Assembly (NCBI GenBank): GCA_964449445.1
Contig: CAYUZT010000006.1
Location: forward strand, 12,223 to 76,222
Origin: an uncultured Candidatus Peribacteria bacterium
GTDB taxonomy: Bacteria; Patescibacteriota; Gracilibacteria; Peribacterales; Peribacteraceae
Length of the DNA: 64,000 nt
Direction of reading: 5' to 3'
The stretch's first letter is position 1; every line of letters begins with the position of its first letter. This document shows positions 24,841 to 35,802 of this stretch, one piece after another. The notes under the pieces were generated by a model, which was not told the DNA's origin, searched no databases, and saw only the letters and a list, made by a program, of their open reading frames with translations. Made by a program: the position numbers and the translations under genes.

Positions 24841-25224
24841 TCACCGATCCTCAGACACTAAATCCGTAATCGTCATCCGTTCGCCGATGAATTTGCGAAC
24901 GGTTCTTTTGAGAAGCGACGCGCTGCGATCCTGGACCTTGGGCAGAACTTCCTTCTTCACAACAGGCGATTTTGCAGTCGCGGGTGCTTTGCCGAAGAGA
25001 GCGCGCTGTTCAGAAAGCCATGTGGGAGCAAAAGCGAGACTTCCTTCGTCGCGAATCAGAACACCGGCAGAAATCATCTGCCCAACCGTCCGGTAGAGCG
25101 TGGGTACCGAGACCGGCATGCGGCGCGCACGCAAATCTTTACTGAGTTCCTTCATCGTCACGCCCGTACGATGTGCGACGATATCAATAATTGCGCTGAA
25201 GAGTGGGTGAAGTGGATCAAGCAT
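24841..25224 (-). CDS. Small winged-helix DNA-binding protein (putative regulator), divergent from paralog 1
   Basis: VTMKELSKDLRARRMPVSVPTLYRTVGQMISAGVLIRDEG looks like an HTH plus wing; family not assignable. Confidence 0.4.
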   Translation of the reverse strand: MLDPLHPLFSAIIDIVAHRTGVTMKELSKDLRARRMPVSVPTLYRTVGQMISAGVLIRDEGSLAFAPTWLSEQRALFGKAPATAKSPVVKKEVLPKVQDRSASLLKRTVRKFIGERMTITDLVSEDR

Positions 25225-25293
25225 GCACTAATAGTAGTTTTCATTTTTTGAGAATGCACTTGTCAGGAAACGAGAAAGAATGTTTACCGCTTT

Positions 25294-25370
25294 CCCTCTC
25301 CCACCGCAGTGGGAGAGGGTGCCCCGTAGGGGCGGGTGAGGGCTATGAGTGAGGGCTATGAGTGAGGGTT
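25294..25370 (+). repeat. GGGAGAGGG/GGGTGAGGG hairpin element (type 1), extended copy with tandem GGGCTATGAGTGA x2
   Basis: ccctctccc-accgcagt-gggagaggg then gccccgtaggggc and gggtgaggg repeats; read directly. Confidence 0.8.
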
Positions 25371-25394
25371 TTCAGAAAGAGCTATACTGTAGAT

Positions 25395-27089
25395 ATGCAG
25401 CAAACCTGCGCCCACTGCTCAACCCAGTTCACGATCGACCCGCTCGATCTGGACTTCTACGACCGCGTCTCGCCGACCTTCGCAGGAAAAAAATATGCGA
25501 TTCCCGCTCCGAAGCTTTGCTTCCACTGCCGATTGCAGCGGCGGATGTCCTTCTATAACTGCCGCTCGGTCTATAAGAGGACGTGTGATGCGACCAAGAA
25601 ACCCATCGTCTCGATTTTCTCGCCCGATAAACCCTTCACGGTGTACGACAAGAATGTCTGGTTTGGCGACAGTTGGGATCCCAAGAGTTTTGGAGTGGAT
25701 GTCGATTTCACCCGGCCGTTCCTCCCTCAGGTTCGTGAACTCGCTGTGCGCACTCCCATGCTCTGCATCATGCACTTTGGCGAGGAGAACCCCAACAGCG
25801 ATTACACCAACGATAACTACAAGATTAAGAACTGCTATCTGGTCTTTGACGGCGAGCAGGCCGAAGACTGCATGTACGGTCAAACCTACGTGATGAGCCG
25901 CAGCTGTGTGGACTTCTTATTCATTCATCGTTGCGAGCTCTGCTATGGCTGCTGCTACTGCGACGAGTCGTACAATCTGCGATACTGCCGCTTCTGCAAA
26001 AACTGTTCGGACAGCTGGTTTTTACGTGACTGCATCGGCTGCCGCAATTGCTTTGGATGCGCCAATCTCCGCCAGAAGCAATACTGCATTTGGAATCAGC
26101 AGAAAACGAAGCAAGAGTACGACGAGTTCATGAACGTCTTCCGCTCCGACTCCCATGCAGCTGTGCTCGCAATGCGTCAAAAAGCGGAGGAATTCTTCAA
26201 AAATCAGCCTGTTCGCGCAACGCGCGGTGAGCAGAATCAGAACAGCTTCGGTGATAACTTGAACAATTCGAAGAACGCCTACTACTGCTTCGATTGTTTC
26301 GCGCAGGAAGACTGCCGCTACTGCACCAATTGCCTGATGTCGGCCAAAGACACGATGGATATGCACGTGTGGGGTGACGGCTTGGAAGTGTCGTATGACT
26401 GTTGCGTGACCGGAGCGAACAGTCGCAATCTGCTCTTCTGCTACAACGTGAGCCAAGGCTGCAGCGACATCCTCTATTCCCTCTATTGCAGCCAATCCTC
26501 CAAAAACCTCTTCGGATGTGTCGGGCTGCGTCATGCGCAGTATTGCATCCTGAACAAGCAGTACTCGAAGGAAGAGTATGAGCAACTTGCCGCGCGTGTT
26601 GTCGAGCACATGATCAAGAACGGCGAATGGGGCGAATTTTTCGCATCTAAATATGCACTCTTCGGCTATAACGAAACCGTTGCGCAAACATATTTCCCGC
26701 TCACAAAGGAAGAAGCCCACAAGCGCGGCTGGCAGTGGTGTGATTACGAAGCAGCCGTGGAAGCAAAACGCTCGATTCCCGCCCAAAAGCTTCCGGACAG
26801 CACCGCAGATATTCCCGATGACGTCCTCGACTGGGCCCTCGTATGCGAACTGACAGGGAAACCCTTCAAACTCACCAAGCAGGAACTGGAATTCTATCGA
26901 ACGCACAAGCTGCCGCTTCCCCGCCTGCATCCAAACGAACGCCATCGGCAACGGACATTGCTCCGTAATCCCTTTCGGCTATGGGCAAGAATGTGCGGCG
27001 TGTGCGGAAAGGAAATACAAACGTCGTATGCTCCGGAGAGGCCCGAGAGAGTCTTGTGTGAAGCGTGTTACTTGAAGGAAGTGTATTAA
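25395..27089 (+). CDS. Cys-rich double-zinc-ribbon repeat protein, paralog 1 (uncharacterised family)
   Basis: ORF 25362 trimmed to ATG 25395 (MQQTCAHCSTQF), 6 nt after TATACT; C-term CGVCGKEIQTSYAPERPERVLCEACYLKEVY. Confidence 0.9.
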   Translation: MQQTCAHCSTQFTIDPLDLDFYDRVSPTFAGKKYAIPAPKLCFHCRLQRRMSFYNCRSVYKRTCDATKKPIVSIFSPDKPFTVYDKNVWFGDSWDPKSFGVDVDFTRPFLPQVRELAVRTPMLCIMHFGEENPNSDYTNDNYKIKNCYLVFDGEQAEDCMYGQTYVMSRSCVDFLFIHRCELCYGCCYCDESYNLRYCRFCKNCSDSWFLRDCIGCRNCFGCANLRQKQYCIWNQQKTKQEYDEFMNVFRSDSHAAVLAMRQKAEEFFKNQPVRATRGEQNQNSFGDNLNNSKNAYYCFDCFAQEDCRYCTNCLMSAKDTMDMHVWGDGLEVSYDCCVTGANSRNLLFCYNVSQGCSDILYSLYCSQSSKNLFGCVGLRHAQYCILNKQYSKEEYEQLAARVVEHMIKNGEWGEFFASKYALFGYNETVAQTYFPLTKEEAHKRGWQWCDYEAAVEAKRSIPAQKLPDSTADIPDDVLDWALVCELTGKPFKLTKQELEFYRTHKLPLPRLHPNERHRQRTLLRNPFRLWARMCGVCGKEIQTSYAPERPERVLCEACYLKEVY

Positions 27090-27097
27090 CGGGCATT

Positions 27098-27135
27098 CCC
27101 TCTCCCTTAAAAGGGAGAGGGTTAGGGTGAGGGTT
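27098..27135 (+). repeat. Type-1 hairpin element ccctctcccttaaaagggagagggttagggtgagggtt (possible terminator)
   Basis: 9-bp stem, 6-nt loop, 8 nt after paralog-1 stop; inverted near-identical copy at 51941-51978. Confidence 0.85.
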
Positions 27136-27148
27136 CTTAAAGAAAGCC

Positions 27149-34308: not shown

Positions 34309-34650
34309 TTATCGGAGAAACACTGCCTTCGAACTTCTTCTCGGTTTTCGCAAAGCTTCGTAAATCTCTTCTTCACATTGTCTCAGTTGTTCCATAACAA
34401 CGGCTCCGAATTTTATTCTATGTATCTCCGGTTCCCGGAGTGCTCTCGCCGCAACAGTAAGTGCATCTTTCCTATAGAGTGCAGGAGTGTAGGATCCCAA
34501 ACCAATAGCTCTCAATTTTGCCACGACATCTTTCTTTGCAAATATTTGATGTTCTTGATTTACATCTCGGGCAGCCATTCTACCGGCATGCTCCAGCGAC
34601 ATTACTGCAAAAATCGGACGATGCCTGGCGTTCTTATTATTAAATGACAT
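34309..34650 (-). CDS. Hypothetical protein
   Basis: 113-aa ORF in AT-richer segment; no motif recognised. Confidence 0.3.
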   Translation of the reverse strand: MSFNNKNARHRPIFAVMSLEHAGRMAARDVNQEHQIFAKKDVVAKLRAIGLGSYTPALYRKDALTVAARALREPEIHRIKFGAVVMEQLRQCEEEIYEALRKPRRSSKAVFLR

Positions 34651-34730
34651 TGGCTGCAGAGTCTAAGTAAAAGGCGAAAAATAGCAAAAAAATGAAGATA
34701 CGATTTACAAAAAACCCGTCACTTCGCCAC

Positions 34731-34764
34731 AAACCCACCTGCGCTAAAGCTTCGGTGGGCAGGC
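34731..34764 (-). repeat. REP-like hairpin of the CTGCCCACC...GGTGGG family, inverted orientation
   Basis: Reverse complement reads cctgcccaccgaagctttagcgcaggtggg; directly downstream of TrmB-3 stop. Confidence 0.7.
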
Positions 34765-34772
34765 GCCGTCGC

Positions 34773-35528
34773 CTACTTTGCAACGAACGCTGTTGCTCCC
34801 AGCCACGCAAGATCAAAGACGGCCTTCATCGTGCGTGCGAATGCGGGACTTTCGACAATGAGACCGAGCAGCTCATCCTGATTGAGCGAAACGATGCCGA
34901 CGGAGTTATTGAAGACAAGCACTTCGTTCTCAAACAGGAACTGATCGCGGTTCACGAGCAAGATCTCCAACAGGTTGTGATCGAATTTCTTGGGAAGAAA
35001 TTGGTCCATCACATGAACGCTCTCCACTGTGGTTGGCGACAGGTAGCGGGTCTTGATCTTCCGCTTTATCTTTTCATGCGTATAGCGCTCGAAGAATTCC
35101 GGAAAGAAGGTGGTCACGCTCTTGAGGTTTGTGTAGCCGAGAATCTCACTCTTGGCAGAGAGGGATTCCGTAAACACGCGCTCCACTCCGTCCTGTCCTT
35201 CGTAAAAACGGATCTTCGGCCGGAACCCAAGCGAGCTCGCAAGGGACTTGAGTGATGGCAAGAGCCCCTTCGCGATATTTAATTTCTCCTCGGCAATCTC
35301 GAGAATTTGTTCAGGAGGCTCAGGTGCGAAACACTTCACACCATTGCGGTTGTACTGACTGAGGAGTCTTTTCGCGAGAAGATTCTCGACAGTGTGATAG
35401 CAACTGACGCGATTCACTCCCGCTTTGCGCGCAATGTTGCTGACGGGACCACCGTTGATTTCCAGAACGGCGAGATACACTTTCGCTTCTTCGTCTGTCA
35501 GCCCGAGCTTGAGGAGTTCTGTGATCAT
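34773..35528 (-). CDS. TrmB-family transcriptional regulator (3)
   Basis: LGLTDEEAKVYLAVLEINGGPVSNIARKAGVNRVSCYHTVENLLAKRLL. Confidence 0.8.
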   Translation of the reverse strand: MITELLKLGLTDEEAKVYLAVLEINGGPVSNIARKAGVNRVSCYHTVENLLAKRLLSQYNRNGVKCFAPEPPEQILEIAEEKLNIAKGLLPSLKSLASSLGFRPKIRFYEGQDGVERVFTESLSAKSEILGYTNLKSVTTFFPEFFERYTHEKIKRKIKTRYLSPTTVESVHVMDQFLPKKFDHNLLEILLVNRDQFLFENEVLVFNNSVGIVSLNQDELLGLIVESPAFARTMKAVFDLAWLGATAFVAK

Positions 35529-35560
35529 AGGCAGATGTCATGGTGAGGCGTTGCGCTGGG

Positions 35561-35627
35561 ATGTCATGGTGAGCGGAGACGAACCATGACTCCATCTGTC
35601 ATCCCTCGTCTCCGCTCGGGATGACAC
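35561..35627. repeat. ~70-bp double-hairpin REP-like element, copy B (inverted relative to 3073-3141)
   Basis: gtcatggt-N12-accatgac (35563-35590) and gtcatccc-N12-gggatgac (35598-35625). Confidence 0.85.
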
Positions 35628-35802
35628 TACCACTGTTGTCGAAGTTTTTCTACAGTTTTTACTGTATGAAAAATGGCTTATAGGAGCCAAAAATATGAGA
35701 TTATATGTAACACTGTTGGACGAAAATGACTCGTTCATGCACACTGTGCACGTCACAGAAAGCCATAACAACTCACTGCCCAATTTGTGCCCCCATTTTT
35801 CT

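Follow-up and report, generated by a model that had tools for sequence, protein, structure and literature searches.

We analysed a 64,000-nucleotide stretch of DNA from an uncultured Candidatus Peribacteria bacterium (contig CAYUZT010000006.1 of assembly GCA_964449445.1; the whole stretch is called the window below, and coordinates count from its first letter), in which three genes for TrmB-like regulators, T1, T2 and T3, stand head to head with members of a cysteine-rich paralog family or with a symporter gene. Taken together, the domain family and fold of these proteins, the conservation of their gene pairing, the position-specific palindromes next to their start codons and the co-variation of recognition helix and half-site across relatives suggest that the region probably holds three conserved local units, each made up of a regulator, its operator and its target. 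An earlier sequence-only reading of the same DNA had proposed divergent pairs of regulator and family gene with palindromes in the spacers between them, and we find the open reading frames (ORFs) and orientations as it described them and the spacer lengths essentially so.

The stretch is chromosomal, and homologs of its proteins come almost exclusively from metagenome-assembled genomes of Candidatus Peregrinibacteria/Peribacteria. Its flanks carry mevalonate-pathway, PEPCK, glycoside-hydrolase and clamp-loader genes, and between 25.4 and 51.8 kb (25395-51836) lie 12 paralogs of the cysteine-rich family, of about 555 amino acids (aa) each. In the left part of this array four minus-strand genes stand opposite plus-strand units, three of them of the TrmB family and one a weak winged helix-turn-helix (wHTH) candidate, here called W0.

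Pairing of TrmB-like genes with the cysteine-rich family

For comparison we used 78 related loci (1.27 Mb; individual loci carry handles beginning with L) around family members in species-representative genomes, in which ORFs were called and both family members and TrmB-like genes were labelled with hidden Markov models built from the window. The gene model for these loci is crude (longest non-overlapping ORFs), which chiefly inflates the class of other genes. Counting TrmB-like genes with an assessable 5' neighbour, with the window excluded, we found 35/59 to be directly divergent from a family gene, compared with 34/656 other genes (odds ratio 27, Fisher p 1e-24). Seen from the other side, a TrmB-like gene occupies the divergent position in 35 of the 69 family genes that have a divergent 5' neighbour. 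The sequence-only reading had proposed to check the regulator-paralog pairing in related genomes and had named a lack of linkage there as the result that would speak against it; the pairing is instead conserved far beyond chance, and so that objection therefore falls away.

A candidate operator class that follows the recognition helix

Many of the palindromes beside these regulator genes share one 18-bp frame, TGT-N12-ACA, and we counted those with at least 7 of 9 complementary pairs. This form occurs within -150 to +30 of 21 of 64 TrmB-like starts and of only 4 of 596 controls (odds ratio 72, p 2e-19). There are 45 such sites in the 1.27 Mb, of which 28 sit 0-175 nt (mostly 2-31) upstream of a TrmB-like start, and the other 17 are close to the roughly 12 expected by chance under uniform base composition. 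A generic best-palindrome score, which this specific test replaced, hardly separates the regions upstream of TrmB-like genes from controls (8/8 pairs in 21% vs 9%).

Moreover, the half-site changes with the recognition helix of the neighbouring regulator, as the following pairs show:

helix RVSCYHT: half-site TGTAGAA
helix RVNCYY: half-site TGTAGAA / TTTTACA
helix RVVCYKI: half-site TGTAGTA
helix RATCYHT: half-site TGTTGAA
helix IKRTSxYD: half-site TGTCGA
helix QSRSHTY: half-site TGTCTATA
helix LDRVTTYKH: half-site TGTTC
helix LDRTTTYRI: half-site TGTGCA
helix HRRNAYD: half-site GGTG

At just 45% identity to T3, the regulators of L048 and L052 still share its helix and its site, whereas those of L017 and L032 are 52-56% identical to T3 and have changed both helix and site, and the correspondence is therefore not just a matter of shared ancestry. 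We regard this co-variation as the strongest in silico evidence that the palindromes may be the cognate operators of the adjacent regulators. The suggestion of the sequence-only reading that each regulator may have an operator of its own thus holds, in that a class-specific palindrome beside the start tracks the recognition helix. A second perfect-class site in L048 (TGTAGAATATTTTCTACA, at 7520) is intergenic, 2.2 kb away from the TrmB-like gene of this locus (candidate operator TGTAGAAATTTTTCTACA), and may mark an extra member of the regulon.

The T1, T2 and T3 units

The T1 unit comprises the following features:

27149-27916, minus strand: T1, TrmB-like regulator, 255 aa (PF01978, 38.5 bits)
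27927-27944: O1(T1), 18-bp candidate operator TGTTCTTCAAGAAGAACA, 10 nt upstream of the T1 ATG
28012-28029: O2(T1), second core TGTTC-N8-GAACA, spanning the paralog-2 ATG
28022-29722, plus strand: paralog 2, conserved T1 partner (best match of the T1-ortholog partners in L025 and L058)

Orthologs of T1 are found in L025, L058, L053 and L039 (81%, 52%, 47% and 46% identity), in all four cases opposite a family gene, and in the two closest loci this partner is the ortholog of paralog 2 itself (80% in L025, 66% in L058). The spacer of 105 bp and the palindrome TGTTCTTC-AA-GAAGAACA at 27927-27944 are both as first described. Taken alone this 8-2-8 palindrome is unremarkable, since 64 kb should hold about 7 palindromes with arms of at least 8 by chance and does hold about 12 distinct ones, while the expectation for a spacer as short as that of T1 is about 0.01. 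It fits the lineage-wide TGT-N12-ACA class, and the core cTGTTGTTC...GAAGAACAg is kept in all five T1-class spacers a few nt upstream of the regulator start, with diverged flanks. A half-site had also been noted 1 nt before the paralog-2 ATG at 28013-28020; it exists, at 28012-28019 and 2 nt before the ATG, and it is part of the full second core at 28012-28029. The pattern TGTTC-N8-GAACA occurs only twice in the 64 kb, both times in the T1/paralog-2 spacer, with centres 85 bp apart. The left arm of O2(T1), the 7-mer TGTTCTT, recurs in L025; because the right arm is coding sequence, its conservation is ambiguous.

The T3 unit reads as follows:

34773-35528, minus strand: T3, TrmB-like regulator, 251 aa (PF01978, 36.2 bits)
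35530-35628: hairpin insert of 99 nt resembling a miniature inverted-repeat transposable element (MITE) or repetitive extragenic palindrome (REP), between the T3 start and the candidate operator (fold -40.8 kcal/mol)
35637-35654: O(T3), conserved candidate operator TGTCGAAGTTTTTCTACA, also given as TGTCGAAgtttTTCTACA (consensus TGTAGAA-N4-TTCTACA)
35674-35689: second inverted repeat TGGCT-N6-AGCCA, partly conserved (block AAnTGGcTT)
35716-35745, plus strand: promoter-like element of the paralog-4 operon (-35 TTGGAC 35716-35721, 18-nt spacer, -10 CACACT 35740-35745)
35738-35750: palindrome TGCACACTGTGCA (TGCACA-C-TGTGCA), at chance level, overlapping the -10-like hexamer
35803-47566, plus strand: seven-gene operon, paralogs 4-10 (junctions -4, +2, -1, +4, +53 and +4 nt)

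The 274-bp spacer is right given the paralog-4 ATG at 35803, a start backed by the family alignment, and the tightly packed junctions (-4 to +53 nt) make the proposed seven-gene operon credible. We found 13 orthologs of T3 (52-94% identity), and the next plus-strand gene past the spacer is a family gene in 11 of them, a count that includes L006, where the family gene starts 377 nt past the site, and leaves out L005 and L025, in the latter of which an extra ORF intervenes. Which paralog heads the facing unit varies, the head gene being like paralog 5, 6, 7 or 8. When 11 T3-orthologous spacers were aligned (70-94% identity) the most conserved block was TGTTGTAGAA-nnn-TTTCTACAG, which corresponds to 35637-35654 of the window. 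The other conserved blocks are AAnTGGcTT and cTGTTgGAC, the latter followed 18 nt on by nAnAnT, and this pair resembles the -35 and -10 of a family-gene promoter. The distance between candidate operator and putative family promoter is fixed to within about 1-2 nt in the 11 orthologs (61 nt in the window) while the sequence between them drifts, which hints at functional coupling. Towards the regulator the orthologs share an order of site, about 7 nt, TATAAT, 6-11 nt and start codon, which would put the T3 site on top of the -35/spacer region of a nearly leaderless promoter belonging to the regulator itself. The T3 -10 of the window reads TAGTGT, and the 99-nt hairpin element is inserted between it and the ATG; most orthologous spacers have no such insert, though variants of it occur in L013, L035 and L087.

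The palindrome that the sequence-only reading had picked out in this spacer, TGCACA-C-TGTGCA at 35738-35750, does exist. About 0.5 repeats with 6-bp arms are expected in a spacer of 274 bp, TGCACA alone occurs 26 times in the window, and footprinting led us to reject TGCACACTGTGCA as the T3 operator because it overlaps the conserved -10 and is not palindromic in the orthologs. A consensus promoter and terminator scan gave fewer matches than shuffled sequence and none in the spacers, so that the promoter proposals made here are drawn from conservation.

Three smaller observations concern the same spacers. Different hairpin inserts occur at the same kind of position in several relatives (L013, L035, L087 and L039). 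The TGGCT-N6-AGCCA repeat, which sits between the candidate T3 operator and the putative family promoter, has a perfect form in L025 (TTGGCTTAATTAAGCCAA, at about 5790) and may be a site for another factor. At 35790-35802 and 30513-30530, and in orthologous spacers, C-rich and then T-rich tracts (cccccatttttctATG, cactacccccctATG) precede the start codons where a Shine-Dalgarno sequence might be looked for. T3-type regulator genes look nearly leaderless, and the lineage may thus use unusual signals to start translation.

The T2 unit differs from both in its partner:

29772-30512, minus strand (ORF to GTG 30530): T2, TrmB-like regulator (PF01978, 49.9 bits; likely start ATG 30512)
30531-30556: O(T2), 26-bp perfect palindrome and candidate operator, holding the core GGTGG-N7-CACCACAA at 30536-30555
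30609-32147, plus strand: sodium:solute symporter (SSF/SSS), conserved divergent T2 partner (PF00474, 84.6 bits)
32165-33820, plus strand: paralog 3, 17 nt behind the symporter (association with T2 specific to this genome)

The spacer had been given as 78 bp, which is correct only with the GTG start at 30530; because the orthologs begin MAIDV the start is probably the ATG at 30512, and the spacer is then 96 bp. The 26-bp palindrome is indeed perfect and is the longest in the 64-kb window, where about 0.001 would be expected. A core GGTGn-N7-CACCACAA lies just upstream of the T2-ortholog starts in L079, L081, L083 and L084, and judging from these relatives the palindrome of the window is a perfected, extended form of the conserved T2 core. 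Orthologs of T2 were obtained by protein search and contig look-ups, a metagenome scan with T2 peptide patterns having found no relatives. All five of the distinct orthologs with at least 70% identity that we looked up (L079-L084) are divergent from an SSF symporter gene, and no family gene follows the transporter in any of the five; what is conserved is thus the pair of T2 and symporter, with paralog 3 as a local passenger. The layout of TrmB-2 opposite the transporter plus paralog 3 stands as first described, while the link to the paralog is local to this genome. A relative of T2 with 61% identity faces an aldo-keto reductase gene, and in L020 a small ORF, with a family-related ORF after it, stands opposite a partial copy. 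The T2-SSF pair is repeatedly found near pyrimidine biosynthesis genes (aspartate carbamoyltransferase and dihydroorotase in L079; dihydroorotate dehydrogenase and its Fe-S subunit in L083 and L084), a neighbourhood that may hint at the substrate of the symporter.

Family and predicted fold of the regulators

T1, T2 and T3 belong to the Pfam TrmB family (PF01978), their scores listed above all exceeding the gathering score of 25.6 bits. The three copies lie within 11 kb and share just 22-25% mutual identity, although jackhmmer runs started from each of them converge on the same 71 homologs; up to five TrmB-like copies are found in one 22-kb related locus. A recognition-helix Tyr is invariant in all three (Y45 in T1 numbering). 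The conserved recognition-helix Tyr that contacts DNA is Y50 in P. furiosus TrmB (PMC4158304), and phmmer matches T2 residues 4-91 to residues 3-90 of TrmB (PDB 3QPH), so that, if this match is ungapped, Y51-D52 of T2 fall on Y50-D51 of TrmB and the Y-D pair is kept.

T2 was the one regulator modelled (AlphaFold2, pLDDT 91.9), and the top Foldseek matches of its model are TrmBL2 (E 2e-11, whole chain, about 265 aligned columns) and TrmB 3QPH (E 4e-8). MarR proteins are further structural neighbours of its wHTH, and its C-terminal domain also matches PLD-fold proteins (NucT, Zucchini). By this model the architecture of T1-T3 is TrmBL2-like: a winged helix-turn-helix, a long coiled-coil helix and a PLD-like C-terminal domain, the last being the sole candidate sensor of these regulators. 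At 246-255 aa they are shorter than TrmB/TrmBL1 (338-341 aa). The sugar-binding site of TrmB lies in about 70 C-terminal residues that are also missing in TrmBL2 (PMC4158304), and in T1-T3 we detected no Pfam match C-terminal of the wHTH and no sugar-binding part of the PF11495 type. Their scores against the NCBIfam equivalog models of TrmB/TrmBL1 are 18-25 bits, where the cut-offs are 500-650. We therefore do not place them with sugar-sensing TrmB sensu stricto, because the sugar-binding subdomain is missing, the equivalog scores are low and the best fold match is the truncated TrmBL2, and the description of these proteins as ligand-responsive, carried over by the sequence-only reading from the TrmB family, is not established for proteins of this length and build.

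Nor do they appear to belong with TrmBL2-type chromatin proteins, the three copies being 22-25% identical and each lying by a distinct conserved site. From their genomic setting T1-T3, unlike TrmBL2, appear to be sequence-specific in DNA binding.

Proposed mechanism and alternatives

On the reading that we favour each regulator, presumably as a dimer, would bind its own inverted repeat beside its own start codon: T1 would bind TGTTC-N8-GAACA at 27927-27944 and possibly the second site over the paralog-2 ATG, T2 the GGTG...CACC repeat at 30531-30556, and T3 TGTAGAA-N4-TTCTACA at 35637-35654. We infer DNA binding itself here, as we do the sign of regulation and any effector. Each regulator would most likely repress itself, because the site overlaps its own core promoter or early transcript. 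Since the site lies in a shared divergent control region, its occupancy would also set the facing unit, namely paralog 2 for T1, the symporter with paralog 3 behind it for T2 and the seven-gene operon for T3; this second part of the proposal, which is less well supported than autoregulation, is suggested by the conservation of the head-to-head layout, by the many spacers of very short length (24-90 nt), by the second T1 site and by the constant spacing in T3 spacers. As to the earlier suggestion that the paralog family as a whole is under multi-input control, paralogs 2 and 4-10 do have a TrmB partner of a conserved type, and paralogs 1, 11 and 12 do not.

Several observations weigh against this proposal. 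The distance from site to family start is variable (about 26-230 nt), whereas that from site to regulator start is tight (mostly 2-31 nt), which makes control of the family genes less certain than that of the regulators by themselves. When we searched generally for a further site close to the target, only the T1/paralog-2 spacers, in the window and in L025, had one. The T3 site of the window is imperfect (6/9 pairs), the hairpin insert puts it about 108 nt from the T3 start, and the promoter assignments were made by eye. The form and spacing of the T2 core are unusual beside the TGT-N12-ACA class, and among the T2 orthologs L082 has a different palindrome (TTGTAGCCaaGGCTACAA) and L020 only a degenerate version. 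Finally, the regulators are without the TrmB sugar-binding subdomain, and TrmBL2, their closest structural relative, binds coding and intergenic DNA without sequence specificity (PMC4158304).

Some of these points could also be explained if the regulators controlled only themselves, with their adjacency to the family arising from en bloc duplication of the pair or from neutral synteny and the family genes having independent promoters. The tight spacing on the regulator side, the variable spacing on the other and the rarity of second sites all fit such a view, as do the separate promoter-like element about 60 nt from the site in T3 spacers and the switching of partner paralogs among T3 orthologs. 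We nevertheless think it unlikely, because a head-to-head arrangement kept in 35/59 cases across deep divergence is hard to maintain neutrally, a single site must overlap both promoters in the many spacers of 24-90 nt, and neither the operator-promoter spacing held to about 1-2 nt in 11 T3 orthologs nor the second T1 core across the target ATG would be expected. It is very improbable that the proteins are general chromatin proteins like TrmBL2, with the palindromes bound by another factor (e.g. of CRP/FNR type) or by none. The best structural match is indeed a non-specific chromatin protein, and TGT...ACA ends are common to several HTH families, but genomes of this lineage carry several to many diverged copies, each by a different site class, the half-site class co-varies with the recognition helix of the adjacent regulator, and the sites are concentrated at the 5' ends of the TrmB-like genes themselves.

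The palindromes might instead work as RNA or be repeats of a selfish or structural kind, such as 5'-UTR hairpins, terminators or REP/MITE elements; this would be in keeping with the REP/MITE-like hairpins of the region (25294, 27098, 35530-35628) and with the possibility that sites are transcribed into regulator leaders. The candidate operators are AT-rich at the centre and single-copy, unlike those GC-rich repeats, they cannot be terminators because they lie between divergent starts, an Rfam search was empty, and their conserved arms, free centres and fixed length are those of dimeric protein sites, all of which leaves this explanation little room. Least credible is chance occurrence of short palindromes in AT-rich intergenic DNA. 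Chance does account for the palindrome at 35738-35750, and the poor separation given by the generic palindrome score agrees with it, but for those at 27927-27944, 30531-30556 and 35637-35654 it is already refuted: only about 0.001 palindromes of 26 bp are expected in the window, the enrichment statistics concern the TGT-N12-ACA class specifically, and the sites are conserved among orthologs.

The three-unit reading may also be part of something broader, which we hold to be possible and yet rather doubtful at present. TrmBL2-like regulators may have radiated in this lineage, with helices and 18-bp TGT-N12-ACA operators co-diversifying into at least 7-9 specificity classes, each gating a different member or operon of an internally duplicated family with a novel zinc-ribbon/cysteine-solenoid fold. 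Were this so, it would amount to a lineage-specific, insulated switching system through which a symbiont genome of about 1.2 Mb expresses alternative paralogs under different conditions, and protein-DNA recognition by the TrmB fold could then be read as a code.

Relation to known systems

Published sites of TrmB-family proteins are palindromic inverted repeats (for TrmB/TrmBL1 e.g. TACT-N3-AGTA and TATCAC-N5-GTGATA), and their overlap with the core promoter or the start site leads to repression; TrmBL1 is listed as autoregulated, and the same has been proposed for a further family member (PMC4158304). Similar to T1-T3, the archaeal TrmB/TrmBL1 (Tgr, Thermococcales) have an N-terminal wHTH with a recognition-helix Tyr and a long coiled-coil helix, are often encoded beside the transporter or operon that they control, and have half-sites of the TGM motif that the T2 core GGTGAT/ATCACC resembles. 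However, T1-T3 are bacterial, from the Candidate Phyla Radiation (CPR), and of about 250 aa instead of about 340; their candidate motifs are 18-bp TGT-N12-ACA or GGTG-N9-CACC, unlike those of TrmB/TrmBL1, and the genes facing them are of the cysteine-rich family and an SSF symporter instead of ABC sugar transporters or glycolytic genes. TrmBL2 (PF0496/TK0471; PDB 5BPD/5BOX/5BQT) is of the same length class and has likewise lost the sugar-binding part, but it is a single, highly conserved and abundant protein, whereas the T1-T3 kind comprises many diverged paralogs beside conserved sites of their own. Divergent pairs of the MarR, TetR and LysR types share with those described here a regulator divergent from its target, a dyad over the regulator promoter and likely autoregulation; they differ in protein family, and in T1-T3 there is a PLD-like C-terminal domain and the arrangement is repeated beside one paralogous target family.

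Pairing a local regulator with a divergent target through a palindromic operator is a textbook design, and binding of TrmB proteins to inverted repeats is established (PMC4158304). What appears to be new is a bacterial (CPR) TrmBL2-like subfamily with specific candidate sites, the putative TGT-N12-ACA operator class with its correspondence of helix and half-site, and a conserved tie to an uncharacterised, expanded protein family. In the literature that we searched we found no paper linking TrmB proteins to Peregrinibacteria or CPR, and to our knowledge almost nothing is known about transcription control in CPR bacteria. The locus and its relatives provide concrete candidate regulator-operator pairs with predicted specificity determinants that can be checked in vitro without culture, and the signal to which the regulators respond is likely tied to the function of the cysteine-rich family, giving a handle on it. 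For annotation, TrmB-2-type regulators go with the SSF symporter, and TrmB-like proteins of about 250 aa should not be labelled 'sugar-specific'.

The wHTH gene facing paralog 1

The fourth minus-strand gene had also been read as a regulator facing a family gene:

24841-25224, minus strand: W0, small wHTH-like gene opposite paralog 1 (sub-threshold FUR/HTH_20 matches)
25395-27089, plus strand: paralog 1, cysteine-rich family (family alignment)

W0 is not a TrmB protein, and we found no support for this pair. Its Pfam scores are sub-threshold (FUR 19.3, HTH_20 18.4 bits), and the Fur family was rejected, since PF01475 scores 19.3 bits against a cut-off of 23.1 over the N-terminal HTH only and NCBIfam Irr 16 bits against 150-170. 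Only three homologs were found in a set of 5.8 billion proteins. In L086 and L087 the gene closely follows a T3 ortholog (89-91%) in the same direction and is itself followed by genes of the rluA/trpS type, for pseudouridine synthase and tRNA synthetase, which are also its downstream neighbours in the window; the ortholog in L053 stands opposite a family gene, as in the window. The W0/paralog-1 spacer holds only REP-like hairpins and no operator-like dyad. On homology and synteny we reject W0 as a fourth regulator-target unit, and it is probably not a dedicated regulator of the cysteine-rich family. The T3 ortholog and the wHTH gene that are adjacent in L086/L087 are 9.5 kb apart in the window (25225-34772), which therefore points to an insertion or rearrangement; the intervening DNA holds paralog 1, T1, paralog 2, T2, the SSS gene, paralog 3, a DUF2000 gene and a 113-aa ORF.

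The cysteine-rich family and its surroundings

The 12 paralogs are 35-49% identical to one another in the family alignment, contain 6-8% cysteine each and have more than 4,400 detectable relatives, all annotated as 'hypothetical'; a single locus holds as many as 12 copies. An AlphaFold2 model of the paralog at 40828-42495 (pLDDT 86.7, pTM 0.86) has no fold neighbour in the PDB (Foldseek, best E 7), nor is there a PDB sequence match. The one Pfam or NCBIfam resemblance, a treble-clef zinc finger at the C-terminus, stays below threshold: for paralog 3 the scores are 24.3 bits (cut-off 27) for zf_Tbcl_2 (PF23477) and 20.3 bits (cut-off 36) for CxxC-x17-CxxC (TIGR04272), and a few family homologs carry a precomputed PF23477/PF13451 match. 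The internal layout is A-S1-S2-A', in which an N-terminal zinc-ribbon module (4-91) is homologous to a C-terminal one (474-552; hhalign E 7e-24) and two cysteine-rich, solenoid-like segments (about 121-235 and 268-380, CxxCxx hexapeptide-like) are homologous to each other (hhalign E 8e-27). There is no signal peptide, and together with the N-terminal zinc ribbon this suggests that the proteins are probably cytoplasmic and metal-binding. We rejected an identification with the cysteine-rich proteins of Anantharaman et al. 2016 (Peribacter), which are large and mostly secreted. Paralog 9 (44218-45873) has lost the cysteines of its N-terminal zinc ribbon (MERTCRLTGKTF...CPEERL instead of CxxC...CPDCR) and may be diverging in function.

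Scanning 24700-36000 against Rfam by E-value returned nothing. Hairpins of the REP-like, GC-rich kind (CCCTCTCCC...GGGAGAGGG and relatives) occur behind or between genes at 25294-25319, 27098-27121, 33828-33865 and 51955-51978, and those at 27098 and 51955 are identical 24-mers 9 and 119 nt downstream of a paralog stop codon. Past the stops of paralogs 10 and 12 (about 47575-47640 and 51860-51935) a REP-like insert precedes a near-duplicate of the last 8 codons of the family (...tgctatctgaaagaggtgtattga), and it looks as if a REP-like element had been inserted into the 3' end of paralog genes. A small toxin-antitoxin-like pair, MazE/AbrB-like at 47691-47936 and ParE-like at 47929-48180 (both Pfam matches sub-threshold), separates paralogs 10 and 11, and a TraG/VirD4-like coupling-protein ATPase gene (T4SS-DNA_transf, TrwB_AAD_bind; 52103-54346) lies directly downstream of the paralog array.

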